64,000 nucleotides of DNA, from assembly GCA_963827655.1 (NCBI GenBank), contig CAWHCF010000004.1, forward strand, positions 106,880-170,879, written 5' to 3'. Made by a program: the position numbers and the translations under genes. Under the pieces are notes generated by a model, which was not told the origin of the DNA, did no database searches, and saw only the letters and a list, made by a program, of their open reading frames with translations. Origin of the DNA: an uncultured Acidobacteriota bacterium (GTDB lineage: Bacteria; Acidobacteriota; UBA6911). This document shows positions 6,774-57,830 of this stretch, piece after piece (within the stretch, counting starts at the first letter, position 1; every line of letters begins with the position of its first letter).

Positions 6774-6784
<11 letters not shown>

Positions 6785-22063: not shown

Positions 22064-22101
22064 GGTTTAATTCCTAGAGCCTGTGATGCGAAAATCCGCA
22101 A

Positions 22102-33233: not shown

Positions 33234-33400
33234 AGGTAGAACTCTGGCATCACACCCTGCGGGTGGGGATTGCCCTGGAGCTCCTCACGGTGCTGGTATC
33301 TTAGAATCAAGCGCCGGGCGAGAAACAATACCCGATTCCCGGCACTGGCGTCTTCGACACCTTGGTGATAAGAGTATTACCGTCACGATCAGGAGCTGTC

Positions 33401-35816: not shown

Positions 35817-36914
35817 CTAAGAAAGCGCGCGCTCGTAGCAACGCATCGTCGCGCGGGCCGCAGCTTCCCAGGTATACTGCCGGGCTCGTTCCCGACCTCT
35901 TGCCGCCAGGACCAAGCGCTTTTCCTCATCCCGGGCCGCTTCTTCGAGCGCGATCCGCCATTGGTCCACGTCATCAACATCGGCGATCCAACCGGCGTCT
36001 CCTACCAGCGATGTCAGCGGCTCAATCCGTGCGACCACCACGGCGGTGCCGGAGGTCATGGCCTCCAGCACCGGCAATCCGAATCCTTCCATTCGAGAGG
36101 GATAGACGAAAGCCAGCGCGGCTTGCATCAGAGCAGGCAGGTCGTCTTCCACGACGTAGTCCAGTAACCGCACCCTCGACTGGATTCGCAATCTACCAAG
36201 ACTGCGCATGACGTCTTTCCAGAGCCAGGCTCTGCTGCCGGCCAGGACCAGCTCGACTTGATTCAGGTTCGACTGTCCAAAGGCCTCCAGGAGCAGAAGA
36301 AGGTTTTTTCGAGGTTCGATGTTGCCGAGATAAAAGAAGAAGGGCCTTGCGAGGCGATACTTCTGCAATACCGCCTCTTTTTGCTCCGCACTGCAGACTT
36401 TGGTGAAGATCTTTCGGGCGCCGAGGGGGACTACGCAGAGCCTGGAGGGTGGGACCGGCAGCCAGGCGCTCAAGTCGGCGCGGGTTGCTTCGGAGTCGCA
36501 GAGGACGACGCGCGCGCCGAGGATTGCGGGGCGAATCAGCCTGCGCATCCAGATTCTGCGGGTCCAGGGATGCCACTCGGGGTGTCGAATGAGGCTCAGG
36601 TCGTGAACCGTGACTACGTAGGGGACGCGTACACGCAGAGGCGCGACGCTGTTGGTAAAGTGACACAAATCGGGATGGTATTGCGCCAGGATGCGAGGCA
36701 ACCAGGCTTGCATCCAGATCTCCTTGATGGGGAAGGCAAGTTTCTGGGTGCGAATCAGATTGACTGCGCGCGGGACATAGTCCGGAAGATGGGACAGTAC
36801 CAGATACTCCCGGTCGGGAAACTCCGTCGAGAGAGCGTCGAGTAGTGAGGCGGCATAGTGGCCTACTCCAGACTGGTACTTTCGCAGGGGACTGGCGTCA
36901 AATCCGATTCTCAT
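35817..36914 (-). CDS. GT4-family glycosyltransferase
   Basis: VVTVHDL, GNIEPRKNL, YPSRMEGFGLPVLEAM. Confidence 0.93.
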   Translation of the reverse strand: MRIGFDASPLRKYQSGVGHYAASLLDALSTEFPDREYLVLSHLPDYVPRAVNLIRTQKLAFPIKEIWMQAWLPRILAQYHPDLCHFTNSVAPLRVRVPYVVTVHDLSLIRHPEWHPWTRRIWMRRLIRPAILGARVVLCDSEATRADLSAWLPVPPSRLCVVPLGARKIFTKVCSAEQKEAVLQKYRLARPFFFYLGNIEPRKNLLLLLEAFGQSNLNQVELVLAGSRAWLWKDVMRSLGRLRIQSRVRLLDYVVEDDLPALMQAALAFVYPSRMEGFGLPVLEAMTSGTAVVVARIEPLTSLVGDAGWIADVDDVDQWRIALEEAARDEEKRLVLAARGRERARQYTWEAAARATMRCYERALS

Positions 36915-38664
36915 CGGGATCATTGCCGCTCGCACATACGACACCTAAAGAAATCCAGAAAAGCAGAAAGGTCGGAGTGAATTTCAAGAAATAATCGACC
37001 GAACCATGCAGCAAGAAAGCCAGGAAGTATGTTATTCCATAAAAAACTGTTGCACGATCGGCTGGCGACATGGCCTGGCGCAGTCTGGCCCATAAAGCCC
37101 GGCCCATCTCGAAAAGTAGCCAGAGCAGCGACAGGAAGCCGATGATCCCGCTTCCGGCGAGATACTCCAGATAGAGACTGTTGGCTAGAATGGTGTCGTC
37201 TCCCGCAGGAATATCCATGTACTTCCACTTGAGAAGCCGGAAGCTGTCGGGACCCAAGCCGAACCAGGGTCTCTCGCGAAACATTTTGAGGGCCGCGCGC
37301 CACAGACTCCATCGGCTGGGAACCAGATTCCGACCCTGGGTGTCTCGTTCCTGCTGCAGGAGCTTGCCATGCGCGAAGGCTTCGCCTGTCGGAAGCGGAG
37401 CAGGGCCGTTTTTCGAGTCATGGATGATGATGATCTGAGGTGTCGAGTTGGAACGCTCAACCTCTTCGATATACGAATGGCGCTCGGGAAATGAACCACA
37501 CGAGCGTGTACTCCCCTTCGCGCGAAGGTGTCTTAAGCATTACTTCCACCTTTCGTTCCTCGCCAGGGAGTACGTCTGAAGCGAAGATCGCTCCCTCCAT
37601 CAACGCGCTCGGCTCCCCCGTGGCAAAACGATACCAGCGATACGCGACGCCAAATCGCTTCCCCTCCCACGCTGTCGAAGAATCGTTCCGGACAATTATG
37701 GCTTCCCGGTATTCCTGACCCGGAGATAAGTATCGGACCGGGTCTGTAACGGGAAGCGAATAGTGCGCGACGCGGCTTCCGGCAGCCGGGGCCTGGGTCT
37801 CGATGTGGGCATAGCGCAGTCTGACGGCGTTACCTATTCCGGCCAGCAGCACCACAACGGTTCCTGCGACGGCCAGTCTCCACCATTTCTTGACGAACGA
37901 TTCTCGAAAGACCCACTATTGCGGTTACCAGCGCGAGGATGGCGGAGCCCAGAGCCCCGCGCGAATAGGTCAAGAAGATCGCCGGCACCTGAACGGCCGC
38001 AGCCGTGAACCAGAGTCCCGGCAAGCGCTGCGATCCAGACGCCGGTCGAACAGCCGCGAGGGCGATAGTAGCGGCGAGCGACGCCACCAGGAAATGCGCG
38101 GCCGTATTAGGGTTCTCCATTGTGGATTTGAAACGCACGCGGCCCCCCACCAAATGATCGCTCGACTGGAAAATCTGCGCGATGCTGTCGAAGAACCGGA
38201 TGCCCGCATGTTCGCCCAAACCGATGACGGCCGTACAGAATCCCGCGATCGAAAGCGCAATGAGAAGACGTACGCCCGTGTGACGCCGGACCGTTGCCCT
38301 GCGGCTCAGGTCGGCCGCCGCGATCAGCATGACTACTCCAAGGAGCGACTTCACAGAGGCTTTGGCTGCATTGAACCTGAATTCGGTCGCGAGCATTGCG
38401 GCAAGTGCTTGCGAGACGATGTATAGGAGACGAGGCTAGCAGGAGACGGGGTGGCAGGGAAGGACTGAGCTTGCGCAGGATGGAGCCCGAAGACGTGGCC
38501 GCCTCGACCATCTTCATCACGATCCAGCATCCCAGGAAAAGAATGAGCTGGAGCTTCAGGCTGGTATACAGGGACTCGGTCGTCGTGTAGAAGTAATACT
38601 CGAAAGGAAGCCCCAGGATCAGAGCATACAGAAGAATCTCACAAGCTTGTCGGAGCACCTGCAC
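36898..38664 (-). CDS. O-antigen ligase/Wzy_C-like membrane protein with inserted Ig-like domain (multiple frameshifts)
   Basis: NPN..A, LTYSRGA, R..LW.AA..MF.ERPWFGLGP, ANSLYLE.L...G..G across several frames; many hydrophobic segments. Confidence 0.75.
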
Positions 38665-38892
38665 CTCTCGATCCAGTGTTTCTTCGAGTCTTTGCGTCCT
38701 GGTGGCGCCGTTGCACTGACCGCCAAGACACAACGACCCGAAGCATCTTAGCGGAACGATGGATTCATGCGCTAGACTCCGATGCGGCCGACCCTGCGCT
38801 GTGTCCTGGCGGTAGTTTTCGTTTGCAAGGTCTCGATCACACGACTAATATTCTTTACGCATTTGAAAGACGGCCTTTTTACGGACGATTCA

Positions 38893-40395
38893 ATGCCCTC
38901 GAGAAAGATAGTCTTCTTCTTCCCTGCCTTCTCCAGTCTCGAAGCAACTGCGCCGCTCGGGATTCTGGCGGTTGCTACTCCTCTGCTTCGAGCAGGCTAT
39001 CAGGTCCGGATCATCGATTCGACCATCACGCCAGGATTTCAGAAGCGCGTCCTGGAGGAGCTTCAGGATGCCCTGTGCCTCGCGGTTTCGCTGGTGACTG
39101 GACCCATGATCCGCGAAACAGTTGCGATTGCGCGGGAAACCAAGAAGCTCTATCCCAAGCTGCCGGTGATCCTCGGTGGATGGCATCCCTCGCTGCTGCC
39201 GGACCAGACTCTCGCGGCGGACTATGTTGACATTGTCGTGAGAGGTCAGGGAGAAGACGCACTCCTCGAGATCGTCGAGCGTCTGGAAGCGGGGGCCTCG
39301 CTCGAGGGAATTGATGGCGTGGGTTACAAGGAAGACGGAAGACTGGTTTTTAATCGGCCGCGTCCCCTGACCCCGATCCGAGATCTTCCTCCCAAAGCCT
39401 ATCATCTGGCTGATTTCGACGCGTATGAACGGGTGTGCGGCCGCCGCTGGGCCATGTACATTTCCAGCCTTGCCTGTCCCTATAGCTGCGCCTACTGCAC
39501 CAATGAAGGAGTATACGGCCGGCAGTGGAACGCGCTGGAACCGGAGCAGGTGGTCGAGGAGACCACCGATCTGGTTACGCGCTATGGGCTGCAGCTGCTG
39601 TGGGTCGTGGATGACAACTTTCTGGTTGACCGCGAGCGCGCGGTGAAGATCGCAGAAGGGCTCGTGCGCCGCGGAGTCTCATTCGACTGGAGCATCCAGG
39701 CCTCGACCAACCTTGTGACACGCCTGTCGGTCGAAGAGCTGAAGCTTCTTCGTCGCGCGGGCCTGTCGCAAATCTGCCACGGCGCAGAATCGGCATCCCC
39801 GAAGGTGTTGAAGCTGATGAACAAGGACTTTCAAAAAATCGACACCATTTACGGGGCGGCGGAGAAGTGCGTACAGGCGGGAATTCGGCCATCGTTCAAC
39901 GTCATCTTCGGCTTTCCCGGCGAAGGTGAGCCGGAAAGGCAGGAGACGATTCGCTTCATCATGGACGTCTGCCGCCGCTATCCGGGAGCCGAATTCTGGA
40001 CCAATATTTTCACGCCTTATCCGGGCGCCCCGATCATGCAGCGCGCGGCGGAATTAGGCATCGAGACCCCGGATTCATTCGAGGGATGGGCCGATTTTTT
40101 CCCTCGCTATACCATTCTCCCGTGGCTGAAAGGACGCAGCCATCAAAGGGTCCAGGCCATGCGCGACTACCTTCGAGTTGCGTTTGATCGAGTCCCGATT
40201 GCAAGCGATCGACGGCACAGGGTCACTCGCCTGGTTCACCAGGCGATAAGCCTTCCGGCTCGCTGGCGCCTGGATCACAACGTCTATGGCCTTCCCCTCG
40301 AAATCTGGGCCAAGAACGCGGTGAATCGAGTGTTTGAATCACCCAAACCGATAGTGGACGCCCAGCAGTTGTCCTCGGAACCTGTCACATGTTAG
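38893..40395 (+). CDS. Cobalamin-binding radical SAM enzyme 1
   Basis: PLG, GGWHPS, VRGQGE, CPYSCAYC, DDNF, GAES, IFGFPGE, PYPG. Confidence 0.93.
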   Translation: MPSRKIVFFFPAFSSLEATAPLGILAVATPLLRAGYQVRIIDSTITPGFQKRVLEELQDALCLAVSLVTGPMIRETVAIARETKKLYPKLPVILGGWHPSLLPDQTLAADYVDIVVRGQGEDALLEIVERLEAGASLEGIDGVGYKEDGRLVFNRPRPLTPIRDLPPKAYHLADFDAYERVCGRRWAMYISSLACPYSCAYCTNEGVYGRQWNALEPEQVVEETTDLVTRYGLQLLWVVDDNFLVDRERAVKIAEGLVRRGVSFDWSIQASTNLVTRLSVEELKLLRRAGLSQICHGAESASPKVLKLMNKDFQKIDTIYGAAEKCVQAGIRPSFNVIFGFPGEGEPERQETIRFIMDVCRRYPGAEFWTNIFTPYPGAPIMQRAAELGIETPDSFEGWADFFPRYTILPWLKGRSHQRVQAMRDYLRVAFDRVPIASDRRHRVTRLVHQAISLPARWRLDHNVYGLPLEIWAKNAVNRVFESPKPIVDAQQLSSEPVTC

Positions 40396-40523
40396 GCGGA
40401 CGGGCTATCGGGCTTCCGCCGTGGAACGAATTGAAGGCTTTTCAAATACCGGGTTGGAACTGAGTAGGAAAATATCTTAACCCAACCCTGGCCTCCCTGG
40501 CACCAGCTTCCTACTCCAATTCA

Positions 40524-42024
40524 ATGAATAATAAAGTTGTGTTGTTCCTTCCGCCTTATACTGGTGCCCCGCTGGGCCCGCCCCTGGGACTTCTCTGCCT
40601 GGCGTCTCCTCTTCGTGAAACAGGGTATGAGGTTAAGATCATCGATGCGTCTATAACTCCGAACTATCTTGAACTCGTCCGAAGAGAAATTCAGGACGCG
40701 CTCTGTTTCGGCGTCTCTTTGCTCACAGGACCCATGATCCGAGGCGCGATCGCAGCCAGTTCCCTGGTCAAGAGTCTGCGGCCCGACCTCCCCGTAGTGT
40801 TCGGCGGATGGCACCCCAGCCTCTTGCCCGCGCAAACCCTGCGCGAAAGCTTTGTCGACATCGTGGTCCGCAATCAGGGGGAGATCACGTTCCTGGAGGT
40901 GGTGGAGCGGATTCGATCGAATCAAAGTCTCACAGGTGTTCAGGGTTGTTCGTTCAAGTCAACCGGCCAGATTCATCACAATCCCGATCGTCCGGTCGCG
41001 CGGATCGAGACGCTGCCTGCGCCGGCATACGAGCTGGCGGATTTCGATGCTTACGAAGCAGGTGAGCGGTGAGCGAAAGCTCCCCTATGCCAGCAGTGTC
41101 GGCTGCCCTTATGCTTGCAACTACTGCACCGATACGGTGTTCTACAAGCGGCGCTTCAATGCCTATAGCGCCGCAGAGGGTGGTGCGAGAAGTAACGGCG
41201 CTGGTCGCCCGCCATCGGTTGAGTGAAGTGGCGATGCTGGATTCCAACTTTCTGGTCGACACGCGCCGGGCGGTAGAGATCGCTCGAGGATTTCTGGCAT
41301 CCGGCTTGCGCTTCCGGTGGACCTTCCAGGCTTCGACCGATCTCCTGTGCCGGATGAGCGACGAGGAGGTGCGACTCCTCGGTGACAGCGGCGTCAGCCA
41401 CATTGGATTCGGGACCGAATCGGCATCAGCCGAGGTCCTGGAGAAGATGGACAAGCATCATCAGCCAGATCCCGGACATGTTCGAGACCGGGCGTAAATG
41501 CCGGCAGGCCGGAATCCGGGCCACGTTCAATTTGATTCTGGGCTACCCCGGTGAAACGGAGCGGGATCGCTGCGAAACGTTGCGTGTCATGAGCGAGATC
41601 GGTCAGCGTTTCGACAATGTGACTTTTTCTCCCAATATTTTCACCCCTTACCCCGGAATTCCAATCTGGCCTGAACTCCGAAACCTCGGGGTGAAGGAGC
41701 CGGAAACGCTCGAAGCCTGGAGCACGATCGCTCTGGGAACCAACATGCTGCCATGGCTGCGGGGCGAACCTTATCGCAACGTGAAGCGCAGCATGTCGTT
41801 TTTCATGTTGAACAACGAAATCACAAAGCTGATCCGCAGAGGTTCGCTCGTCACGTCTGCACCGCTTCCTGCTGCGCGCGTTACAACGACCCTTGCACTG
41901 GCGCATGAAGCATTACTGCTTTCGATGCCCGCTCGAGCTCTGGGTCGTGAGAAACCGGCTGGTGATGCGCCGTTCACTCCTCACCGGTCAAAGCTTGGGA
42001 GAGAGCCTTTCGGAGACCTGTTGA
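40524..42024 (+). CDS. Cobalamin-binding radical SAM enzyme 2 (several frameshifts)
   Basis: PPLGL, GGWHPS, GCPYACNYC, DSNF, GTES, ILGYPGET, FTPYPG across ORFs 40524, 40852, 41069 and 41382. Confidence 0.88.
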
Positions 42025-42087
42025 CAAGAGCAGTAGGCAGTAGGCAGCGGGCTGGCGCGTCCGCCACAGAGAAGCGGAGCGGGTATA

Positions 42088-43530
42088 ATGGCTGATATTC
42101 TCCTGACTCATTGCAACCACCTGTACTTCGATCGCAAGCAGGTGCGCAAAATGCAGCCCTACCCTCCGTTGCAGACCCTGATCGCGGCGGCCCTGCTGCG
42201 CAGGGAAGGGTTCGATGTGGCGCTGTTTGACTCCACGCTGGAGCCGCCGGAAGAGGGCTTCCGGGCCGCGCTGGCACGACACCGGCCGCGTCTCGTCGCT
42301 CTGTGCGAAGACAACTTTAACTTTCTGACCAAGATGTGCCTTACCCGGAACCGGGAGCTTGCGTTCTCGATGTGCCGGACGGCCAAAGAAACTGCGATTC
42401 CGGTCCTGGTGAACAGCTCGGACGCGACGGATCACGCCGGGGAATACCTGTCAAACGGCGTCGACTATGTCATGGTGGGCGAGCTAGAGCATACCCTGCT
42501 GGAAACGGCGCGATGCCTTCTCGAGGGCCACACCGATCGGATCGAAAACATCGATGGCCTCGTGTACCTCGACTCGCGCACGGGCGCGGCGCGCTACAAC
42601 CGGCCGCGGGGGGTCATGGCGAACCTCGATCTCTTGCCCCTCGCCGCCTGGGACCTGATCGACGTGGCGCCCTACCGCCAGGCCTGGATGCAGGCCCACG
42701 GCTATTTTTCGCTGAACATGGTTTCCAGCCGCGGTTGTCCATATCATTGCAACTGGTGTGCGAAACCGATCTACGGCCAGAGTTACCATTATTGCTCGCC
42801 CGATCGGATCGCCCGCGAGATGCAGCATCTAAAGACCCACCTGCGGCCCGACCATATCTGGTTCGCGGACGACATTTTTGCGCTTTCGGCGCAGTGGACT
42901 GCGCAGTTCGCAGACGCGGTCGAGAATCTTCGGGCGCAGATACCCTTCAAGATGCAATCTCGCTGCGACCTGATGACCCGGCCTACCGTTGCGGCGCTCA
43001 GGCGCGCCGGCTGCTCCGAGGTTTGGATGGGGGCCGAGTCCGGATCTCAGAGAATCCTGGATGCAATGGACAAAGGAATTTGCCTCGAGCAGATTCACCA
43101 GGCCCGCGAGAATCTGCGCCGGCACGAGATTCGCGCTTGTTTCTTCCTGCAGTTCGGTTATCCGGGGGAGGATTGGGACGATATCCAGAGCACGATCCGG
43201 CTGGTTCGGGAGACAGAGCCCGACGACATAGGAGTCTCGGTTGCCTATCCCCTGCCGGGCACGAAGTTCCACGAAAGAGTGGTCGCCCAGCTGGGTGAAA
43301 AGAAGAACTGGCTCGATAGCGACGACCTGGCCATGATGTTCCGCGGCACTTATACCAACGATCTCTATCACGCCTTGCACGACGCGCTCCACCTCGAAGT
43401 GGATCTCCGGAAAAGCAAAGACAAGGACAACGAGAGGCACAAGGCTCTGCGTGACCTCTGGGCCCGAGTGGAAGAATTACGCACTACCTGTGCCAATCCT
43501 GATCCCACGGTTCTATGGACCTCCTCCTGA
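42088..43530 (+). CDS. Cobalamin-binding radical SAM enzyme 3
   Basis: PYPPL, SSRGCPYHCNWC, ADDIF, GAESGSQRIL, FGYPGE, YPLPGT. Confidence 0.93.
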   Translation: MADILLTHCNHLYFDRKQVRKMQPYPPLQTLIAAALLRREGFDVALFDSTLEPPEEGFRAALARHRPRLVALCEDNFNFLTKMCLTRNRELAFSMCRTAKETAIPVLVNSSDATDHAGEYLSNGVDYVMVGELEHTLLETARCLLEGHTDRIENIDGLVYLDSRTGAARYNRPRGVMANLDLLPLAAWDLIDVAPYRQAWMQAHGYFSLNMVSSRGCPYHCNWCAKPIYGQSYHYCSPDRIAREMQHLKTHLRPDHIWFADDIFALSAQWTAQFADAVENLRAQIPFKMQSRCDLMTRPTVAALRRAGCSEVWMGAESGSQRILDAMDKGICLEQIHQARENLRRHEIRACFFLQFGYPGEDWDDIQSTIRLVRETEPDDIGVSVAYPLPGTKFHERVVAQLGEKKNWLDSDDLAMMFRGTYTNDLYHALHDALHLEVDLRKSKDKDNERHKALRDLWARVEELRTTCANPDPTVLWTSS

Positions 43531-44917
43531 CCCACGGTTATTTTCTCAGAGAAGACCCGAAAGAGCTTGCGGTCATGAAGCCCTACGCTCCGCTCGGGAT
43601 TCTCTATCTGTCCTCTCATCTCAGGAAAAAAGGATTCGAGGTCGAGATCTTCGATACAACTTTCCGCGCGCGCGCAGATCTTCTCGCGATTGCTCGAGAC
43701 CGGTCCTCCTTCGGTGGTGGGCATCTACGGAAATCTTATGACGCGCCGGACCGTCCTGGAGTTGACCGCATGCGCGCGGGACGCCGGGTGGACCGTCATT
43801 CTGGGAGGCCCGGAACCCTCCACCTATGCCCGGGAATATCTGGAGGCCGGCGCTCATGTCATCGTGCAGGGCGAGGGCGAGATAACCATGGAGGAACTGC
43901 TCCCTGCATTGCGAGCCGGTCGCGACGCGCGCGCTCGAGCGCGTCAACGGCATCATCTTCCGGCGCGCGGATGGTTCGGTTGCACACACTCCGCCGCGTA
44001 CTTTAATCGCCGATCTTGACTCGCTGTCCTGGCCCGACCGGGAACGCGTGGACATCGAAGACTATATCAAGGTCTGGAAAGACCATCACGGCATGGGCTC
44101 GGTCTCGGTCATAACCGCCCGCGGGTGCCCTTATCATTGTCGCTGGTGCAGTCACTCCACTTATGGCAAGACCCACCGAAGGCGATCGGCCGGATGTGTG
44201 GTGGACGAGGTCGAGTGGATCGTTCAACGCTACCAGCCGGACATGCTCTGGATCGCCGACGACGTATTCACTATCCATCACGGGTGGATTTACCGGTACG
44301 CGGAGGAAATGAAGCGGCGCAATCTTCGGATCGCGTTCGAGTGCATCACGAGAGCCGATCGCCTGAATCCCAGAATCGCCGACACATTGGCCGAGCTGGG
44401 TTGCTTTCGCGTCTGGGTAGGGTCCGAGAGCGGATCCCAGCGAATACTGGATGCCATGGAACGAGGAGTTACGGTGGAGCAGGTCCGGCAGTCCATTCAT
44501 CTTTTGCGCGCCCGGGGCATTCAAACCGGAATGTTCCTCATGTGGGGTTATGAAGGGGAAGACATATCGGATATCGAAGCCACCGTGACTCACGTCAAGT
44601 CTTCCATGCCCGACGTCTTTCTCACGACGGTTTCTTATCCGATCCGGGGAACGCCCTATTACGAAGAAGTCGAGTCGCGGCTGGTCAACCTGGCCGAGTG
44701 GAGCCGAACCACAGACCGGGACTTCAAGCTTCGCGGACGTCACTCGAGGAGGTTCTTCGGGTTTGCCGATCAGCTGCTGAAGAATGAAGTCGGGCTCCAC
44801 AAGTTGATGATTTCGCCGGAAGCGTCTCCCGACGCCGCCACGGTGGCATACTTTCGGAGACAGATTGACGAAGCCCGGCAGGGGCTTCAGCAATCGTACG
44901 AAGAGGTCGAAGCGTGA
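43515..44917 (+). CDS. Cobalamin-binding radical SAM enzyme 4 (two frameshifts)
   Basis: PYAPLG, GGPEP, GEGE, TARGCPYHCRWC, ADDVF, GSESGSQRIL; overlaps enzyme 3. Confidence 0.9.
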
Positions 44918-44943
44918 CCGACTGCGGATCGCGAAGAGTTCGG

Positions 44944-45818
44944 ATGCCAGGATTGAACCATCAGGCTGCTTGCCAGTCAGCAATCCAAGGTCGCGGCGGC
45001 ATTCGATGCGCTGGCTGCGCGCTATGACGACACGTGGACCGACTCGGTTATCGGGCGCCTCCAGCGTGAGTCCATCTGGCGGGCCATCGACGGTATTTTC
45101 ACTCCCGGCGGGCATATTCTGGATCTTGGTTGTGGAACCGGAGTCGATGCGGCGCTATCTGGCCCGTGCCGGACTCCGAGTTCACGCGACCGACATCTCA
45201 GGCGGCGATGCTGCAGGCCACGCGGAAGCGGTTGGAGCGAGAAAGAATCACGGACCGAGTGACCTTCGAGCTGAGGGCGCTGGAGGATCTCGCGCTTCTG
45301 AAAGAACGCGGCCCATTCGACGGAGCCATTTCAAATTTCGGTGCGATCAATTGCGTGCGAGGATTTACCGGGCGTCGCTTCAAGCCTGGCAGAATTGATT
45401 CGTCCCGGCGGCAGGCTGGTCATTTGCTCGATGGGCCGATTCTGCCTTTGGGAGTCGCTCTGGTACCTCATGCACGCGACGCGCCGGGAAAGCTGTTCGA
45501 CGGTGGAGTGGCGCCGCACCGGCGGGACATGTCCGGAAGACCGAAATGACGCGCAGGCCTCCTTTGGTACGCGGCCGCCGCTTTGAGGTTTTTTATCCCA
45601 CGGTCGCTGAGATTGCATCAGCATTTAGACGAACACTTCCGGCTGATTCAATTTCGCAGCATCGGAGTATTCGTGCCTCCTTCCTACATGGAGAGTTGGG
45701 CCGCGAGCGGCGCCGGCCTTTATGCGCCGGCTGGGGCGCCTCGATTTCCATGGTTGGCGCATGGCCCGGTCTGCGAGCTATCGGAGACCATCGCTTGCTG
45801 ATTCTCGAGCGATCCTGA
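44944..45818 (+). CDS. Class I SAM-dependent methyltransferase 1 (frameshifted)
   Basis: Manual reading gives AFDALAARYD..ILDLGCGTGVDA, then FDGAISNFGAINC and RPGG. Start is approximate. Confidence 0.8.
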
Positions 45819-45866
45819 CTATGGCTTCCTATGCGGCACCCTGCGGATCAAACCAGAGTCCCTGAA

Positions 45867-46817
45867 ATGGAGCAGCGTTCGTTGAAGCTGCGCTGTCCGT
45901 CGTGCTTCGCCCCTGCCGGCGAGCTGAAAGGCGCCGCGAAGAGGGGAGAACCTGCCTTTCCTGCGGCTATCGCATGGAATGGGTCGAAGGCATTCTGCGC
46001 GCCGTGATCCCGGAGCGCCGGAAATTCTATGATCGCTTTCTGACGGAATACTCGACCATTCGAAAGGCTGAGGGGCGCGGCTCCGATGATCCCGCGTACT
46101 ATTTGGCGCTGCCGTACAGGGACTTGACCGGAAGGCATGCCGAACAGTGGGCCATCCGGGGTAAGACCTATCGCTATTTCGAGGAACGCGTGCTGCCTGC
46201 AGCTCGAAACCGGCCGGCCTCTCGACATTCTGGATCTGGGAGCCGGAAACGGCTGGATGTCTTACCGCCTGGCTCAGAGAAAACATCATCCTGTGGCGGT
46301 CGACATCCTCACCGATCCGTTGGATGGGCTGGGCGCCGCCCGGCATTTCCACGCCGCGCTCGACGAGAAGTTCCCGCTGGTTGAGGCGGAATTCGATCGT
46401 CTTCCGTTTCGCCGACGCTCAGTTTGATCTTGCGATCTTCAACTCTTCGATTCACTACTCGTCGCATTATCATCACACTCTGAACGAGGCGAGACGCTGC
46501 TTGCGTCCTTCAGGGCGTGTGGTGATCCTTGACTCCCCGATCTACAGGAAATACTCCCATGGCGACCTGATGCGATCCGAACGCCATCGAGAGTTTGAAG
46601 CGCGCTATGGCACTCGTTCAGACTCAATCCCGAGCGTTGAATTCCTGCACCAGGCGGTTCTGGAAGAATTGGCGGATTCACTTGCATCTCAGTTGGGAAA
46701 TCTACAAGCCCTGGTACGGTTGGAAGTGGGCGCTCCGTCCCTGGAAGGCTCGCCTGAAGCAGGCAGAGGCCTCCGTCTCGCTTCTGGATTCTCGTCGCCA
46801 CCTGGGCTCGGTCATGA
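45867..46817 (+). CDS. Class I SAM-dependent methyltransferase 2 with N-terminal Zn-ribbon-like Cys pairs (frameshifted)
   Basis: CPSC...CLSC, ILDLGAGNGW, FDL..FN.S.HY, LRPSG; ends in an ATGA overlap with radical SAM 5. Confidence 0.8.
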
Positions 46818-48279
46818 TCATCTTCCTTCACCCGCGCGCAACCAGCCCGCGAAGCCGGCGATTTCCGCTCTCGATCCTCGCGCTTGCGGCTGTCGTGGAA
46901 GGGAGAGAGGAATACGAAATCGTAGACGGCAACATCGACCCCGATCCCTGGGAATCCTTGCGGCGGCTGATGCGGCATAAGACTGCAGAATTGCTGGCGG
47001 TCTCGGTTATGCCGGGTCCTCAAATGAAGGCCGCCATTCCCCTGTGCCGGGCTTTTCGTGAAGAGTACCCGTCGGTCCCGATCGTGTGGGGCGGCTACTT
47101 CCCCTCTCTCTATCCTGATGCGGCCCTGAACTCGAACTACGTCGACTTCGCCGTTCGCGCTCAGGGCGAGGATACTTTCCTCGAGCTGATCGCGGCCCTT
47201 CGTGGCGAGCGCGATTTTTCCAGGATTCTCGGTCTTTCTTTCAAAGACCACTCGGGCCGGCGTGTTCACAATCCTGAGCGTCCGATGCGCTCGCCCGAGG
47301 AGTATCCCTGGCCCCCATATCACCGGCTGGAGGTTTCGAAGTACATCCTTCCCACGTTCCTGGGCTCGCGCACCGCCGTGCACCAGGCCAGCATTGGCTG
47401 TCCCTTCCGGTGTAATTTTTGCGGGGTGATTTCGGTGTACGGGAGCCGCGAGAAAATGGAGTCGCCTCGGCGCACGGCGGCAATCTTAGGGCACCTTAAG
47501 CAGCGCTTTGGCGTCAATGCCATCCAGTTTTACGACAATAATTTCTTCCTGCGCGACGACCATGCCCGCGAACTGGCGGAGCGGCTGACGCCGCTCGAAT
47601 TGCGCTGGTGGTGCGAAGGTCGCGTCGACACGGTTCTCGGCTACTCTGATCAGACCCTTCGCGCTTTGAAGAGAGGCCGGATCCACGATGATCTTCTTCG
47701 GCGCGGAATCGGGTTCGGACTGGGTGCTCGAGCAGATGAACAAGCAACTCAAGGCGGAGCAGACGCTCGCTCTGGCCGGAAGAATCCGGCAGTTCGGCAT
47801 TGTGCCCGAGTTTTCTTTCATACTGGGGAATCCGCACGACCCGGAACGCGATACGCGCGAGTGCATCGCGTTTGTTCGAAAGATCAAGCGGATTAACCCC
47901 CAGGCCGAGATCATCATTCAGCACTACATTCCTGTGCCTCAGCGCGACGGGATGTACGGTCAGGTCGAGGGTAAAATCGAGTTTCCCACGACGCCTGAGG
48001 AGTGGGCGACAGACCGGTGGTACAACTTCACCGTCAGGACCGACCCGAAGCTGCCGTGGCTGCCGGATCAAATCCGGCGCCGGATCGACGACTTCGAGCT
48101 CGTGATAAATTCGCGCTGGCCCACGGTGCAAGACATCCGGCTGCCCGCGTTGGGGACGCGCGGCACTGAAGTCGCTCAGCAGCTGGCGCTACCGCCTGGG
48201 AATCTACCGATTCCCTCTGGAGCTTGCCTGGGCGCAGAAAGTGATCGATTTACGAAAACCCAAGGTCGAGAGTATTTGA
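46814..48279 (+). CDS. Cobalamin-binding radical SAM enzyme 5 (frameshifts)
   Basis: FPLS, WGGYFPS, VRAQGE, SIGCPFRCNFC, DNNF, GAESGS; ends LRKPKVESI-stop. Confidence 0.9.
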
Positions 48280-48989
48280 ACCATTCCCTATTACAACTGG
48301 AAAACCGGTCAACCCGCATAGTGTCGCCTGCGGAAGGGCACCGGATCTGGTCTGAGAGCTATGATAGCCAGCCCAACCCTCTGCTTGCCCTCGAGTTTCG
48401 CTATCTTTCCCGCATGATGCCGGAGATCGAAGGACGGCTGGCGCTGGACGTGGCTTGCGGGACCGGTCGATGGCTGGGTTACCTGGTTACACACGGGGCG
48501 CGAGCCTTTGGAGTCGACACCTCGCGTGAGATGCTGCTCCATGCGTCGAAAAAGCCGGGACTTCGAGAACGTCTGATGCGCGGCGACCTGTGCCATCTTC
48601 CATTCCAGAACGGGTGTGCGGATCTGGTGATCTGCGCCTTTTCTCTCGGGTACATAAGAACGCTCGAGCAGGGTCTAGCCGAACTGGCGCGGCTGGTGAA
48701 GTCGGGCGGATCTGTGATCGTCAGCGATTTTCATCCTGAAGGACACGCTCGAGGCTGGAAGCGCGCCTTCCGGAGCGGCTCGCACAGCTACGAGATCGAA
48801 CATTATCCATACACGATTGAAAGGTTGCTGGAAGCTGCTCGAAATGCGCGTCTGGATCTGGAAGAGCTTCAAGAGCCAGGTCTCGACGAACCGGAGCGGC
48901 GCATTTTTCAGGAGGCCGGCAAGGAGACCCTGTTTGAGGAAGCGCGCGGCGTGCCGGCGGTGCTTATTGCTCGCTGGAGACGGCGGTAA
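48276..48989 (+). CDS. Class I SAM-dependent methyltransferase 3 (BioC/UbiE-like)
   Basis: TTGA overlap start; W...YD..PNPL, LDVACGTGR, GVD.S.EML, LPF, SDFHP. Confidence 0.88.
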   Translation: MNHSLLQLENRSTRIVSPAEGHRIWSESYDSQPNPLLALEFRYLSRMMPEIEGRLALDVACGTGRWLGYLVTHGARAFGVDTSREMLLHASKKPGLRERLMRGDLCHLPFQNGCADLVICAFSLGYIRTLEQGLAELARLVKSGGSVIVSDFHPEGHARGWKRAFRSGSHSYEIEHYPYTIERLLEAARNARLDLEELQEPGLDEPERRIFQEAGKETLFEEARGVPAVLIARWRRR

Positions 48990-48995
48990 ATAGAC

Positions 48996-49071
48996 CTTGG
49001 CGTTTCTTCGTGTCTTTGCGTCTTAGCGGTGTCAGAAGCCAACCACGAAGACTCAAAGACACGAAGAAACA
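48996..49071. repeat. Inverted pair of the dispersed CCACGAAGACACGAAG-type repeat
   Basis: gtttcttcgtgtctttgcgtcttagcggt faces accacgaagactcaaagacacgaagaaac; related single copies near 9050, 18976, 27201, 35781, 38676, 50742, 61338 and 63553. Confidence 0.75.
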
Positions 49072-49079
49072 GGCGTGAC

Positions 49080-49304
49080 TACAAGATAAGTCGGCATTCC
49101 ACTTCTCGCCGGTACGAAAGGGTCTCGCTTTCTCTCAAGATACTTCCGGCAAGGCTCTTGGAATCTCGAGAGGGCTTTGTGTAAGCCACGACTCGGACCA
49201 TCGGGCGACCACGTTTTGTTATTACTACGGGATCTCTGGTTTCTGCTACCGTCGATAATTCTCAGACACTGGTCCTTGAACTTGGCTGCAGTGATGGTTT
49301 TCAT
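49080..49304 (-). pseudogene. Phd/YefM-family antitoxin, frameshifted and orphan
   Basis: MKTITAAKFKDQCLRIID continues in another frame as TVAETRDPVVITKRGRPMVRVV. End is approximate. Confidence 0.75.
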
Positions 49305-49516
49305 ATTTTGCAATATGGCCATGACCATATAGCCATGTCAACCATCGATCTCTCGCTTCCCAGGCCGTCGCTTGGGAAGTATTTAATAGCCCTGAGGACT
49401 TGCGCCTTCGGGCCGGCTCTTGTCACTTTGGGAGGAATCGGTTCGCGGCCAAGGTCACGGTTTTTTCGTTCGGGAGCTGGAGTCCAAGGATTTATGATGA
49501 GGAACGGTGGCGCGGC

Positions 49517-50795
49517 ATGGCACAAGAACGGTCGTGGATTCTGCGGGGAGCGCGAATAGCGCGAGGAGCCGAAGAGACAGAGGCAAGCGATATCGAGATT
49601 CGTGCCGGGAAAATCGTCGCCCTTGAATCGTCGTCGCCCATCCCGGGCACGCGCGCTCGAGCTCGATCTGCGCGGTTGTCTGGTATTGCCCGGCTTGATC
49701 AATGCCCACGACCACCTCGAGTTCAGTCTTTTTCCCCGTCTGGGACGCGGACCCTATCCCAACGCCGGCGCCTGGGCGCGCGACATCTACCAGCCGCATC
49801 GTTCGCCGATAAAGGAACATTTGCGCGTTCCCCTGCCGGTTCGGCTTCGCTGGGGCGGAATCAAGAACTTGCTGAGCGGCGTGACGACGATCTGCCATCA
49901 CAATCCTTACAACGCTCGAGTCTTCGAGCATAACTTTCCCGCGCGTGTGCAGAAGAGATTCGGCTGGGCGCACTCCCTGGAGTTTGCTCCCGATCTGGAG
50001 TTGCGTTTCCGCGAGACTTCGCCGGAGTGGCCCTTTATCGTTCACCTCGGCGAGGCGAGGGATCGCACCGGGAAACTCGAGATTTTTCGACTCAACCAGC
50101 TTGGCGCCCTGGATGAGCGCACTGTCCTGGTTCACGGAGTCGCTTTGGGAAGGCAGGGACTGCGGCTGTCGAAGGAAAAAGGAGCGGCGCTGGTTTGGTG
50201 CCCAAGCTCAAATCTGTTTATCCTGGGGCGCACCCTGAGCCAGGCGGCGCTCAATAACGGCGTTCCCCTGGCTCTCGGCACCGACTCCGCGCTGAGCGGA
50301 AAGGGAGACCTGCTTGATGAGTTCCGCCTGGCGCAGCGAGTCTCCGGTCTTTCATCAAGCCGTCTCTATCGGATGGTTACCGAGGATGCGGCCCGAATCC
50401 TGCGGCTGGAAAACGGCGAAGGGACAGTAACGGAAGGTGGCGTGGCTGATCTCCTGGTCGTGAGAGACAATGGAAGAAGCCCGGCCGAGACGCTCACGAG
50501 ACTTCGAACCGGCGCCATGGAAATGGTGATCCTGGGAGGGAGGATCAAGCAAGTTTCACCGCGCCTGGCGCCTCGGCTCCCGGCTACCGTCCGGAAGCGA
50601 CTCCGTTCCCTCACTGTAGAAGAGAAACGAAGGGTCTTTCTTGATGCGGATCTTCCCGGGATCTACGCACGGACGTCGCGTGTGCTCGGTCCCGAGATCC
50701 GACTCGCCGGGAAAAAGATCCGCATCGACATAAGCGGGGCGAAACAAATACCGCCAGGACGCAAGGACACGAAGAAACAGCAAGCAAGCGCATGA
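49517..50795 (+). CDS. Metal-dependent amidohydrolase (deaminase-like; frameshift near 49640)
   Basis: DLRGCLVLPGLINAHDHL, SGVTT, VHLGE, LVHG, WCPSSN, LGTDS, ADLLV. Confidence 0.88.
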
Positions 50796-51778
50796 TTCCT
50801 GACATTATCGAGAAGCTCCCGATTCTGATTCTTTATCCCCACAGTCGATGCAACTGCCGCTGCGTGATGTGTGATATCTGGAAGATCGACACGGTGCGTG
50901 AGATCAGCATCTCTGACCTGGACCGTCACGCCGGCGATATCCAGTCCCTCGGGGTCCGGTGGGTGGTCTTCTCGGGCGGAGAGCCTCTGATGCACTCCGA
51001 TCTCTTTCGACTGAGTGACCGGCTGCGCGAAGCGGGCATCCGGACCACGATACTGACCACGGGCCTTCTGCTGGCGAAATACTCGAGCTCAATCGTCAGC
51101 CGGCTCGACGACGTGATCGTCTCCCTGGATGGACCTCGCGAGGTTCACGATCGAATCAGGCGGATCCCGCGCGCGTTCGATCTGCTGGCGGGCGGAGTGA
51201 ACGCCATTCACGCGCGCAAGCCCGAATTCCCGGTTGCGGCGCGCTGTACGGTCCAGCATGAGAATTTCTTGAGCCTGCGCGAAACTGTGCGAACGGCTAA
51301 AACAATGGGTCTCCAGTCCATTTCATTTCTGGCTGCGGACCTGACCTCCGAGGCGTTTAACCGGCCGCAAGGTTGGTCGGGGGAGCGCCAGGCCAGCGTG
51401 GCGCTGAACGGTGAAGAAGTGAATCTGCTGGAGAACGAGATCGAGACAATGATTCGCGAATCAGCGGAAGATCCGGCCTACGTGCTCGAGACTCCGGAGA
51501 AGCTGCGACGCATTGTTTATCATTTCCGCGCGCATCTGGGTATGGTCGAGGCGGTATCGCCGCGCTGCAATGCCCCGTGGGTGTCGGCCGTGGTCGAGTC
51601 GGACGGCACAGTTCGTCCCTGCTTCTTCCATAAACCCATTGGCAACATCGGCCGCGATACGCTTCGCGCGGTATTGAACGGACCGGAGGCAATGGAATTT
51701 CGCAGGACCCTCGACATTTCCCGGAATCCGATCTGCCGGCGCTGTGTTTGCTCGCTTCACCTTTCGCCTGTGCCGTGA
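50792..51778 (+). CDS. Radical SAM enzyme with SPASM/twitch domain
   Basis: CNCRCVMC, SGGEPL, VSLDG, C-terminal CNAPW..VESDGTVRPC..CRRCVC; ATGA overlap with the amidohydrolase. Confidence 0.92.
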   Translation: MIPDIIEKLPILILYPHSRCNCRCVMCDIWKIDTVREISISDLDRHAGDIQSLGVRWVVFSGGEPLMHSDLFRLSDRLREAGIRTTILTTGLLLAKYSSSIVSRLDDVIVSLDGPREVHDRIRRIPRAFDLLAGGVNAIHARKPEFPVAARCTVQHENFLSLRETVRTAKTMGLQSISFLAADLTSEAFNRPQGWSGERQASVALNGEEVNLLENEIETMIRESAEDPAYVLETPEKLRRIVYHFRAHLGMVEAVSPRCNAPWVSAVVESDGTVRPCFFHKPIGNIGRDTLRAVLNGPEAMEFRRTLDISRNPICRRCVCSLHLSPVP

Positions 51779-52141
51779 TCAAGCTGCTTTCTTGGGAGCC
51801 CGAAAGGGCGGGCAGGGCGCAGGCTCGACCGTCAGAAGCTCTGAAGAAATGAGTCCGTGGCGCGGGTCATCAGTTTGCGACCCGCGTCGTCTGCGAGGGC
51901 CGCTACAATAAGTCGCTCTCGGAATGTGGCTGACACATTTTCTGAAGCCTTGTGGCGACGGCTCATCAGACCCGTCGCACGTTCGAAGATTTAGCGTTAA
52001 AATTCGTAGTGCCACTAGGGACGGATGTCTTGATAGCCCGTCCGCACATGTAGCGGGCGAGTCTTTGCAACAGACTCTGCGCGTATGAGCAAAGCTGGTG
52101 CTTCACGGGACGTAATCGGCTTTTCTTCCGTTGCGGGCGAT

Positions 52142-53734
52142 TTATCGCTCGAGCTGATAGACCTGGAGCGGCATCCCGCCGTCTTCGCGGATTTCTCGAA
52201 TCAAACGGGCCTTGTGTTGGCTCATATAGGCCCAAAATTCATCATGATAAACAGACATCCCTGGCCGAGAACGGTCCAGGAGGTTTCGCATCGTAGTCGC
52301 GTCGAGCAAAACGATGTCCGGGGCATTTAACTTCATGGCTTCGGCAAATGGAATGGGATTTTCGTGCCTCTCTGGATCCGACAGAAGCAAGGGCAGATAG
52401 AAAGATCGATATTGCCGATCAGCGAGAGCAAGCCAATAGATCTCGCGCCCCAGTACACGGGCCGACGAAGGAACCACCTGTCTTAGCTCGCTAAAGATCT
52501 GGCGGGGGGGTACCGCTTGGCTCGCAGTCCGCTGCATCCGGAAAATGGCCCAGGCGCCCTGAAACACCGTCAGCCCGACAATCACCACCACGACCGCGCG
52601 GTACGCTCCTCTGCGCGCTTCTAGCAGATGAGCGAGCAACGCCGCGACGAGAAGCGCAAAAAGAGGGGCTACAGTCACCAGATAACTGAAACGTTTGATC
52701 TTGACCAGCAGAGCGAACAGTAAAGGAAACACCAGACAAGGCACCAGCAACCACAATGCCTCCCGGTCTCTAAGCCGGGCCGCCCGCCCCCAGAGCCAGA
52801 CCAGCGCTGCGGGAACGCCCAGGGCTATGAGCCAGAAACCGGGATGGACCATTGTTGCCATCTCGCCCACCCCCAGAGCATAACGATGCCGTTCGTTGAG
52901 GATATTCTCGACATAGAAGGAAAGGCTCAGAGGTTTGAATGTCTCACGACTTAAGATCAGCTGCCCCTTATAGTCATCCCAGTTAGAAGCTAATACGAAG
53001 ATCCAGATGAGCCATGGTACTGATGCTCCAGCCATTATCTGGCCGAGGCTGCGAAGAGTGGGTTGATACGTGAAGTAAAGGCGCTCCAGCAACAAGAGCA
53101 AGAGTAACGCGACAATCCAGAATAAGCCGTAGTAGTGAGCCAGGCCTGCCATCCCCGCCAGCAGTCCAGCCAGAAAATCATGTCGATTGCGCCCGGTGGA
53201 ACGCGCGCGCAGCCAGAACCACCAGGCGCCCAGACCGAGCGGCGGGACGAGAATGTCGTAGCGCGCAATTCGTGAAACATCGACCAGCGGAATGCCCGTG
53301 CTCATTATGCGGTCGTTACCTGCCCCCCACGGCCAGAACAGGAGTAACAGGACGGCGAAAAGCCCTATGGGACGACTGCTCATGCTCAATTTGCGCGCGA
53401 CCGCATAGGTGAGGATGAGGGTCAGCATTCCGAGAGCTACCGGCACGACGCGCATTTGAAAGACCCCGAGACCGAAAAGACGTGAGGCCGCGCCCTGCAG
53501 TAAGGACATCAGGGGCATGAACTCCAGATAGTGGCGCTCCATTCCGTAATAACCTGTGAAAAGGTCGGAGCCGAAAATGCCTTGCGTAAAAAACTTGTAG
53601 CCGGGTGACAGGATCCAGGGTTCATCTTCCTGAAGGGGCGGAAAGCGATCGAGGTTCCAAATCGAGATTGCGCCGAAGACGATGACCAGTATTGTTAACG
53701 CAGCAAGATCAGCCTTTCGAAGTTTGTCGTTCAT
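52142..53734 (-). CDS. ArnT/GT39-like (GT-C) membrane glycosyltransferase
   Basis: Acidic EDE after TM1, multiple TMs, ARYD, AGLLAG.A...H motifs. Confidence 0.75.
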   Translation of the reverse strand: MNDKLRKADLAALTILVIVFGAISIWNLDRFPPLQEDEPWILSPGYKFFTQGIFGSDLFTGYYGMERHYLEFMPLMSLLQGAASRLFGLGVFQMRVVPVALGMLTLILTYAVARKLSMSSRPIGLFAVLLLLFWPWGAGNDRIMSTGIPLVDVSRIARYDILVPPLGLGAWWFWLRARSTGRNRHDFLAGLLAGMAGLAHYYGLFWIVALLLLLLLERLYFTYQPTLRSLGQIMAGASVPWLIWIFVLASNWDDYKGQLILSRETFKPLSLSFYVENILNERHRYALGVGEMATMVHPGFWLIALGVPAALVWLWGRAARLRDREALWLLVPCLVFPLLFALLVKIKRFSYLVTVAPLFALLVAALLAHLLEARRGAYRAVVVVIVGLTVFQGAWAIFRMQRTASQAVPPRQIFSELRQVVPSSARVLGREIYWLALADRQYRSFYLPLLLSDPERHENPIPFAEAMKLNAPDIVLLDATTMRNLLDRSRPGMSVYHDEFWAYMSQHKARLIREIREDGGMPLQVYQLER

Positions 53735-53996
53735 TCTCACTCGCCGGAAAAACTGGGTTGGACCTGCGCTCCAGGCTTGACGGAATATAGAAGCTCGTGT
53801 GCCAATATACAATCGTTTAGAAACGGCCAGGCTCGGAGAGACTACTCGACCTTGTGTCTTCTTGCGAGACGCGACAAAATATTGACCTGCACTTTTCGGT
53901 CGCGCGGGTTCTTCGCTCCTGGCCGTTGAGGTTGTTTTCCAGCAATAACCACAAGGCGCAAAGTCGAAAAGAGATGCTGAATCCGGGAACTTGCTA

Positions 53997-57730: not shown

Positions 57731-57830
57731 ATTGAGGTATCTTCGCGATTCGCTATGGCTTGGTGGTGATACACCAAGTATACAACCGAGCTTGCGGGAG
57801 AGGCAGGAGAGAAGGACATTATCTTACATG

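Follow-up and report, generated by a model that had tools for sequence, protein, structure and literature searches.

The DNA analysed here is a stretch of 64,000 nucleotides (nt) with a G+C content of about 59%, referred to below as the window, from contig CAWHCF010000004.1 of an uncultured Acidobacteriota bacterium. Between positions 38893 and 51778 it carries ten genes in one orientation (g1 to g10, together the cassette). On stop-to-stop translation of the plus strand from 38000 to 52500 these encode five radical S-adenosylmethionine (SAM) enzymes with a B12-binding-type domain, three class I SAM methyltransferases, an amidohydrolase and a radical SAM enzyme of the SPASM type (Table 1). A preliminary description of the DNA had proposed these gene types and their common orientation, and both were borne out by translation and by Pfam, which was run together with NCBIfam on the 21 frame pieces of the interval and gave domain E-values down to 1e-22. 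Neighbouring genes are closely packed, the four stop/start overlaps pointed out earlier all being real (16 nt at 43515, ATGA at 46814, TTGA at 48276 and ATGA at 50792).

The presence of five B12-binding-type radical SAM genes with an intact CxxxCxxC motif was likewise upheld. The Pfam B12-binding model PF02310 (cut-off 32.1 bits) is passed by g1 (63.8), g2 (66.0), g3 (33.1), the middle piece of g4 (32.8) and g7 (51.0), and CxxxCxxC is present in the translations of g1, g2 (in its frame-1 piece), g3, g4, g7 and g10. The cysteines of the motif are invariant in our alignments A1 and A2, and in g10 residues C259, C277, C315, C318 and C320 are invariant among 21 sequences. By their domain build g1 to g4 and g7 therefore belong to the class B (cobalamin-dependent) radical SAM superfamily, with cobalamin binding, and possibly methyl transfer, as putative activities. 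The window pieces of g5 gave no Pfam match, and its designation as a methyltransferase rests on its orthologue in a related locus (L005) and on profile matches, orthologues of this gene carrying Methyltransf_25/31. A long frame at 47670-48986 had suggested a fusion of g7 and g8; this was rejected, as g7 departs from the long frame near 48148 to end at 48279 and g8 begins at 48276. In agreement with the preliminary description no nonribosomal peptide synthetase, polyketide synthase, phosphoenolpyruvate mutase, cyclase or PqqD was seen among 82 pieces of open reading frames (ORFs) scanned with Pfam, a set that takes in part of the small ORFs.

Directly 3' of g8 lies a stable hairpin, and next to it some 400 nt of spacer with lower G+C (49070-49470). 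This spacer is missing from the closest loci in other genomes, where g8 and g9 are a median of 117 nt apart (41 loci). The 480-nt g8-g9 spacer gave no Pfam, Rfam or locus match, and an Rfam search over 36000-54000 with E-values up to 0.1 matched nothing. Hairpin and spacer may be a small insertion or serve as an internal terminator.

Table 1 Coordinates of the cassette genes, the hairpin and the flanking glycan-related genes in the window
Feature	Coordinates	Strand	Description
g1	38893-40395	+	B12-domain radical SAM, intact, 500 aa; Pfam B12-binding 63.8 bits, Radical_SAM 81.1 bits (38893-40392)
g2	40524-42024	+	B12-domain radical SAM, g1 paralogue, 4 frame changes; Pfam domains split over pieces
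g3	42088-43530	+	B12-domain radical SAM, intact, 480 aa, core gene; both Pfam domains (42088-43527)
g4	43515-44917	+	B12-domain radical SAM, core gene, 2 frame changes; Pfam domains split over pieces
g5	~44957-45818	+	Class I SAM methyltransferase, core gene, at least 3 frame changes; approximate start
g6	~45902-46817	+	Methyltransferase (Pfam Methyltransf_11/25), N-terminal Cys pair, 4 frame changes, variable gene; approximate start
g7	46814-48279	+	B12-domain radical SAM, 2 frame changes; both Pfam domains in N-terminal piece 46571-47893
g8	48276-48989	+	Class I SAM methyltransferase, intact, TTG start; Methyltransf_11 66.9 bits; single-frame profile match
Hairpin	49002-49070	+	69 nt, directly 3' of g8; -40.5 kcal/mol, z -4.96, 0 of 200 shuffles as stable
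g9	~49517-50795	+	Amidohydrolase, cytosine-deaminase/MTA-SAH-deaminase group, 1 frame change, variable gene; Amidohydro_1 65.3 bits; approximate start
g10	50792-51778	+	Radical SAM with C-terminal SPASM/twitch-type Cys cluster, intact; Radical_SAM 54.6 bits, SPASM 49.4 bits (cut-off 21.5)
GT4 glycosyltransferase	35820-36944	-	Divergent from g1
Wzy_C-type membrane protein	36901-38844	-	3-4 frame pieces; divergent from g1
GT-C (PMT_2-like) membrane glycosyltransferase	52145-54001	-	
GT-C (PMT_2-like) membrane glycosyltransferase	53949-55331	+	
NTP_transf_5	55545-56795	-	
HprK-like kinase	56711-57823	-	
GT-C (PMT_2-like) membrane glycosyltransferase	57834-59513	-	
GT4-Bac_transf fusion	59395-61326	+	GT4 fused to polyprenyl-phosphate sugar transferase
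GT-C-like protein	62257-63390		Fourth of its kind

A conserved gene set in two layouts

Relatives of g3 number more than 8000 in the protein collection, the named ones coming from Bryobacterales and Bryobacteraceae metagenome-assembled genomes (MAGs), and a protein atlas returned for g3 only 'Acidobacteriota' clusters of B12-domain radical SAM proteins. A g3 profile built from alignment A1 (22 sequences) gave at least 599 pattern matches in a set of contigs holding one genome per species, at least 594 of which were confirmed. The best 80 of these at least 594 loci were kept (L001 to L080) and their gene content was determined by tblastn with the window pieces; gene counts use the 56 of the 80 that have at least 6 kb upstream and at least 8.5 kb downstream of g3, the other 24 having been dropped. 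All 80 are titled as MAGs, 79 from Acidobacteriota and one (L060) from Candidatus Aquilonibacter of the phylum Vulcanimicrobiota. The latter has a Terriglobales-type layout and neighbours in spite of its label, which suggests a mis-binned contig or a transfer.

Homologues of the cassette genes are co-localised in these genomes, with at least seven of the ten present in 52 of the 56 fully flanked loci and all ten in 15. Two layouts account for the 52 loci. In 31 of them the genes run colinearly from g1 to g10 as in the window (Bryobacterales type), g3, g4, g7 and g8 being found in all 31, g1, g5, g6 and g9 in 29 each, g10 in 28 and g2 in 18; by title these comprise 18 loci of the Bryobacterales lineage, eight 'Terriglobia', three 'Acidobacteriota' and two 'Acidobacteriaceae'. 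The other 21 are divergent (Terriglobales type), with g7 and g8, an optional NTP_transf_5 gene, an optional Wzx gene and g1 on one strand and g2-g3-g4-g5, an optional g6 and g10 on the other; g9 occurs in none of the 21 and g6 in six. Seventeen of these are titled as belonging to the Terriglobales lineage, three as 'Acidobacteriota' and one is the Aquilonibacter record. The remaining four of the 56 loci hold only g3-g4-g5, to which one (L071) adds g10. Across the two orders g3 retains 56-69% identity.

Two B12-domain radical SAM genes and a class I methyltransferase gene, g3-g4-g5, thus form an invariant core to which g1, g7, g8 and g10 are attached nearly always, and g2, g6 and g9 are variable, lineage-specific additions. 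With only this core constant and three genes variable, the view that all ten genes make up one pathway overstates the unit. The cassette is a conserved, uncharacterised tailoring set of the class Terriglobia (Acidobacteriota), and we are confident that it is one functional unit under strong constraint. Transposase and integrase genes (rve, IS481-like and IS21-like IstB) lie beside the minimal module of L008 (14082-17550) and just after g10 of L033 (18756-21007).

Frame breaks in the window copy

The frameshifts suspected in the preliminary description are present, and orthologue profiles and tblastn place at least 16 of them in six of the ten genes (g2, g4, g5, g6, g7 and g9), leaving g1, g3, g8 and g10 whole. 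In order to map the breaks, per-gene profiles built from 16 to 40 orthologues were compared with the three forward frames, and tblastn with the intact proteins of L001 and L002 agrees with the result. For g1 a single-frame profile match covers the entire gene. The reading frame of g2 runs through frames 3, 1, 2, 3 and 1 with breaks near 41060, 41172, 41464 and 41843, that of g4 through frames 3, 1 and 2 with an extra G at 43692 and an extra base in a GC run near 43925, that of g6 through frames 2, 3, 1, 2 and 3, and that of g7 through frames 2, 3 and 1 with breaks near 47668 and 48148. The profile pieces of g5 lie in frames 2, 1, 2 and 3 with one ambiguous stretch, and g9 passes from frame 2 to frame 3 near 49635, its N-terminal piece being weak (12.7 bits). 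In g4 the break sites are fixed by an intact relative (P0121, 466 aa) that is 95% identical.

We consider these breaks to be probably errors of assembly or consensus, because they share one direction of shift, carry no stops and come with no extra divergence, and because relatives 95% identical are intact. Every one of the 15 unambiguous breaks goes in the +1 direction (two-sided sign test, 6e-5), the broken pieces are free of in-frame stops, and the broken g4 and the intact g3 are alike in being 95% identical to their closest intact relatives. In L001, which is a short-read assembly, nine genes are complete and open with overlapping ends, while g1 runs off the contig. The one-sidedness of the shifts suggests a systematic insertion error in the assembly.

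Real decay, with the cassette of this genome a pseudogene cluster, is rather doubtful and would concern the state of this copy and not the function of the family. It would account for the uneven spread of the breaks, of which g1, g3, g8 and g10 have none where about 5.8 would be expected if they were even (P = 8e-4), and for the site at 43692, which is not in a homopolymer. Two adjoining genes are split as well, an acyl-CoA dehydrogenase (34531/34952, to 35764) and the Wzy_C gene, whereas nine ORFs of at least 430 aa at 1-31 kb of the window are whole. Both of these splits also shift +1, however, and the absence of nonsense codons and of extra divergence argues against decay, as does the fact that g4 and g5 of the invariant core are broken and g3 is not, a pattern that selection would not explain. 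Farther off, splits in a DUF418 gene (31964-33249) and a PD40 gene (3117-4138) shift -1. The window copy may be non-functional or mis-assembled.

Relatedness of the encoded enzymes to characterised families

All parts of the cassette come from known superfamilies, and no characterised counterpart of the whole was found, which agrees with the earlier expectation that it would match no characterised cluster. None of the window proteins or of the intact L001 orthologues reaches a curated NCBIfam cut-off, solved structures are distant from the cassette proteins at 13-22% identity, and a full-text literature search, which did not extend to supplements, returned no description of the cassette. The available parts of PMC13159169, bioRxiv 10.1101/2023.10.20.563219, PMC8941075, PMC3908369, PMC13459092 and PMC6993621 contain no such description, and those of a 2026 review of lipid-modifying radical SAM enzymes (PMC13459092) do not mention Acidobacteria.

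Among curated models those for the hopanoid enzymes HpnJ, HpnR and HpnP and for BchE score highest for g1 to g4 and g7, at 87-142 bits against cut-offs of 481-650, and the cassette lies without hopanoid or bacteriochlorophyll genes nearby. BchE is the best model for g1 (142 bits), the large g4 piece (118) and the g7 piece (87) with a cut-off of 481.35, HpnJ is best for g3 (116 versus 577.6), and HpnR reaches 95 bits at best against 650. As these scores fall far under the cut-offs, the five proteins are not members of these families. The same holds for TIGR04072, a ladderane-type 'lipid biosynthesis B12-binding/radical SAM' model that comes second for g1 (110 versus 360), for TIGR03975, a C-methyltransferase model of peptides that are made on the ribosome and modified after translation (RiPPs; 85-93 versus 281.85), and for ApyD, on which the orthologues of g2 and g4 score 107-112 against 750.

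In sequence searches of the PDB the closest solved protein is AprD4 for g3 (2.6e-19) and g7 (1e-15) and MgmA (9ccb) for g1 and g4. An AlphaFold model of g3 (pLDDT 83) matches AprD4 (6fd2), TsrM (6wte), MgmA, OxsB (5ul2-4), CysS (9n1b-d) and TokK (7kdx) about equally (E-values 1e-20 to 1e-14, TM-scores 0.59-0.70, 15-22% identity, and 17-22% for the best matches AprD4, TsrM and MgmA), with cassette sequence matches of 1e-9 to 1e-19. All six share with the cassette enzymes the N-terminal Rossmann B12-type domain and the radical SAM barrel with CxxxCxxC; the cassette proteins differ in being shorter (about 465-500 aa) than TokK, CysS and OxsB and in occurring as five paralogues in a single operon, unlike the solved class B enzymes. 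The best structural match of g3, AprD4, is deposited as a 1,2-diol dehydratase and not as a methylase. Since the B12-domain enzymes are equally far from the methylases TsrM, MgmA, TokK and CysS and from the non-methylating AprD4 and OxsB, the type of reaction is not readable from similarity, and multi-methylation, as put forward in the preliminary description, is one possible reading of the chemistry.

For g10 (AlphaFold model, pLDDT 86) the best solved relative is BlsE (7vob), the cytosylglucuronate decarboxylase of blasticidin S synthesis, which is of similar size and matches in sequence at 6e-17 and in fold at 2e-15 (TM-score 0.67, 21% identity), whereas the NCBIfam BlsE model gives 66.7 bits against a cut-off of 400. 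Although the models of g3 and g10 are confident, their fold matches in the PDB do not tell sugar, peptide and lipid substrates apart.

The L001 orthologue of g5 scores highest on the NCBIfam model CpaM, with 69 bits where the cut-off is 180. For g9 a PDB sequence search finds 4dyk and 4gbd (about 1.5e-14) nearest, together with 4f0r and TM0936, the matches running down to 3e-7. Deaminases of methylthioadenosine (MTA), S-adenosylhomocysteine (SAH) and 5'-deoxyadenosine (4gbd, 4f0r, an MTA/SAH deaminase, and TM0936) are thus its closest solved relatives, and g9 has the HxH metal motif, although only its C-terminal half aligns with them and the NCBIfam models PRK09045 (70-77 bits versus 540) and PRK07228 (58 versus 522) fall short of their cut-offs. 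Because g9 is dispensable, being absent from all the divergent loci, and resembles these deaminases, it most likely deaminates the inhibitory by-products SAH and 5'-deoxyadenosine, a prediction made from sequence; a role on the substrate itself is less likely. Genes of the SAM cycle adjoin the cassette in two other loci, a MetE-like methionine synthase domain and a methylenetetrahydrofolate reductase in L016 (3823-6368) and an S-adenosylhomocysteine hydrolase in L055 (19746-21170).

Genomic surroundings and candidate substrates

The cassette often sits in or beside envelope-glycan loci. In the window it is flanked by two GT4 domains, one of them in the fusion with Bac_transf, by the Wzy_C pieces and by GT-C membrane glycosyltransferases, and a GT-C gene, the HprK-like kinase and NTP_transf_5 form one operon on the minus strand (55545-59513). 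Profiles made from annotated representatives, on which the family identities were checked and confirmed, were run over the called genes of the 79 loci whose core genes had been called. Within 6 kb of the cassette they found, as raw counts, NTP_transf_5 in 38, the HprK-like kinase in 25, Wzy_C and GT4 in 18 each, GT-C in 14 and Bac_transf and Wzx in eight each, with an ABC ATPase in five, Wzz, MurJ and FkbM in three each and Wza in two. Any glycan gene is present in 46 of the 79, the kinase or the nucleotidyltransferase in 41, and one or other group in 58, including all 21 divergent loci; in the Terriglobales operon the interval from g8 to g1 holds NTP_transf_5, sometimes together with Wzx. A sugar, a surface glycoconjugate or a lipid, the substrates suggested in the preliminary description, all fit this context.

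Elsewhere in the window an aldehyde-dehydrogenase-like ORF, a weak AMP-binding-like ORF and two large PQQ_2 beta-propeller proteins lie on the minus strand at 20644-26959 and do not recur in related loci. The window ends hold a DUF2442 gene (816-1199) and a UPF0047 gene (63603-63998), which are ordinary and unrelated to the cassette.

The kinase matches HprK-related NCBIfam models at 32-43 bits against a cut-off of 200. An HprK-family kinase (PsmK) and an 'uncharacterized nucleotidyltransferase' (PsmN) have been described to phosphorylate and then add hexose to the lasso peptide pseudomycoidin (PMC6993621, seen in part). This pair resembles that of the cassette, the likeness of PsmN to PF14907 being one of description only; unlike the lasso system, the cassette comes without a lasso cyclase, a B protein, PqqD and a precursor.

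Our tentative reading is that the cassette quite possibly works in the cytoplasm to tailor a sugar unit, lipid-linked or nucleotide-activated, that belongs to an envelope glycoconjugate. We favour it because of the flippase and nucleotidyltransferase genes embedded in the cassette, the flanking glycan genes and the solved relatives that act on sugars, AprD4 on an aminoglycoside sugar and BlsE on a nucleoside glucuronate. In the cytoplasm the enzymes would work on a sugar or oligosaccharide that is either linked to polyprenyl phosphate or activated by a nucleotide. There the B12-domain radical SAM enzymes would take hydrogen from unactivated sugar carbons and then C-methylate, deoxygenate or rearrange them, by analogy with GenK-type enzymes, AprD4 and HpnJ-type enzymes; GenK and HpnJ have roles on sugars. 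The class I methyltransferases would carry out O- or N-methylation and g10 an oxidative or decarboxylative reaction resembling that of BlsE, while the HprK-like kinase and NTP_transf_5 may add a phosphate-linked hexose as in pseudomycoidin. The finished unit would then be flipped and passed to the Wzy_C or GT-C membrane enzymes, with g9 clearing the SAH and 5'-deoxyadenosine released by the nine SAM-consuming enzymes.

Several observations weigh against a sugar unit as the substrate. A profile search of the window found no Wzx, MurJ, Wza or Wzz, and the counts given above carry no background rate near random Terriglobia genes. Twenty-one of the 79 loci have neither glycan genes nor the pair within 6 kb, and several of these (L002, L003, L022) have housekeeping neighbours. 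In L071, a Sulfotelmatobacter MAG, the genes directly upstream are of lipid and polyketide type and not glycan genes. In fold searches g3 lies no nearer to the peptide methylase MgmA than to TsrM, which methylates an amino acid, or to CysS and TokK, whose substrates are carrier-bound, and for g10 the peptide maturases CteB, SkfB and SuiB come almost level with BlsE. The one characterised pair of kinase and nucleotidyltransferase acts, in the available part of PMC6993621, on a peptide and not on a glycan.

Tailoring of a lipid chain is fairly unlikely. Here the radical SAM enzymes would methylate, cyclise or couple unactivated alkyl or acyl carbons, and candidate targets are fatty or polyketide chains bound to a carrier, the anchor of a glycolipid and lipids that span the membrane. 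The glycosyltransferases, kinase and nucleotidyltransferase would then build the polar head group. The L071 locus points this way, since positions 1555-9949 hold a fatty-acyl-AMP-ligase-type gene, two fatty-acid desaturases, an acyl carrier protein and a polyketide-like protein with ketosynthase and acyl carrier domains, and from the first desaturase onward these are co-oriented with the g3-g4-g5-g10 module and lie directly upstream of g3. Lipid-type neighbours were found in this one locus of 79, however. Two acyl-CoA dehydrogenase genes lie 3-5 kb upstream of the cassette in the window, and the sub-threshold matches of g3 to HpnJ and of g1 to TIGR04072 would also fit lipids, although these and HpnR miss their cut-offs as described above. 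The fold matches of g10 place GDGT-MAS at rank 47, and it is hard to see what class I methyltransferases would do on saturated chains. The carriers kept are all MAG records, with no isolate among the named matches; in the part of PMC13159169 available it is stated that Acidobacteria lack mss and must reach membrane-spanning lipids in another way, which is given as unknown, and according to abstracts and passages from the literature, PMC13459092 among them, B12-dependent radical SAM enzymes methylate and cyclise archaeal tetraether chains.

Modification of a peptide or protein is distinctly unlikely. In such a RiPP-like system C-methyltransferases of the B12-domain type, the SPASM enzyme, N- or O-methyltransferases and the hydrolase would mature a peptide or protein whose precursor is encoded elsewhere, and the kinase and NTP_transf_5 would add a phospho-hexose in the manner of the lasso pair, the characterised example of which modifies a peptide (PMC6993621, seen in part). 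Some Terriglobales loci have an ABC ATPase beside the pair, g10 is close in fold to CteB, SkfB and SuiB (E-values 4e-15 to 5e-13), and the g2 and g4 orthologues give their scores on ApyD, with g4 also matching the protein methylase MgmA. The mix of genes recalls proteusin RiPP clusters such as that of polytheonamide, which combines several B12-dependent radical SAM C-methyltransferases, an N-methyltransferase and a radical SAM epimerase. In contrast to those clusters, no precursor or nitrile-hydratase-like leader gene was found, and conservation and spread of the cassette are far greater. Candidate small ORFs (25-130 aa) from the 80 loci and the flank of the window, 1353 in all, form no family that is shared by more than four loci, and the domain scans of window and loci found no PqqD or RiPP recognition element, leader peptidase, lasso cyclase or NHLP/Nif11 domain. 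The RiPP models are missed by a wide margin (TIGR03975, and ApyD at no more than 112 bits), and RiPP clusters are seldom this conserved or widespread, so that the identity of g3 over two orders and its presence in at least 594 species-level genomes would be unusual for one.

A narrower form of the lipid proposal, in which the cassette tailors branched membrane-spanning tetraethers (of the branched glycerol dialkyl glycerol tetraether, or brGDGT, type) in uncultured low-oxygen peat and soil Terriglobia, is very unlikely. The B12-domain paralogues would then be mid-chain C-methylases and ring formers like archaeal Grs and Gmm, the SPASM enzyme would perform a chain-coupling or bridging step, and the glycosyltransferases, HprK-like kinase and NTP_transf_5 would build glycosyl and phospho-hexose head groups. 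The fit is circumstantial, resting on carriers that are all MAGs, Sulfotelmatobacter among them, on the single lipid/polyketide locus and on the acidobacterial route that the available part of PMC13159169 states to be unknown. A related proposal, which would have the cassette produce iso-diabolic acid in every strain of subdivisions 1 and 3, was dropped on indirect grounds, as cultured strains make this acid (PMC13159169, seen in part) and no cultured carrier appears among the 80 locus titles and the few named matches.

Modification of a cofactor, tetrapyrrole or corrinoid through side-chain remodelling of the BchE, NirJ/AhbC/AhbD or CpaM kind is highly improbable, for although BchE leads for g1, g4 and g7, AhbC, NirJ and AhbD are among the top models for g10 and CpaM, a corrinoid-protein-associated methyltransferase, is top for the g5 orthologue, all lie far under their cut-offs (BchE 142 versus 481, AhbC 67 versus 650, CpaM 69 versus 180), models of the BchE, AhbC and NirJ type often draw any B12-dependent radical SAM or small SPASM protein, and no gene for the synthesis of tetrapyrroles or cobamides was seen in the flanks scanned.

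Terriglobia rank with the most abundant bacteria of soil and peat, and the cassette is carried by at least 594 species-level genomes and represented by thousands of metagenome proteins, with six radical SAM enzymes none of which has an assigned reaction. Its three-gene core g3-g4-g5, intact in public MAGs such as L001, offers a practical object for experimental tests. If the tailoring of an envelope glycoconjugate is its function, the cassette would bring rare radical C-H chemistry into bacterial surface-glycan synthesis and would point to B12-dependent traits in soil Acidobacteria; if lipids are its substrate, it could bear on the unknown biosynthesis of the brGDGT palaeoclimate markers.

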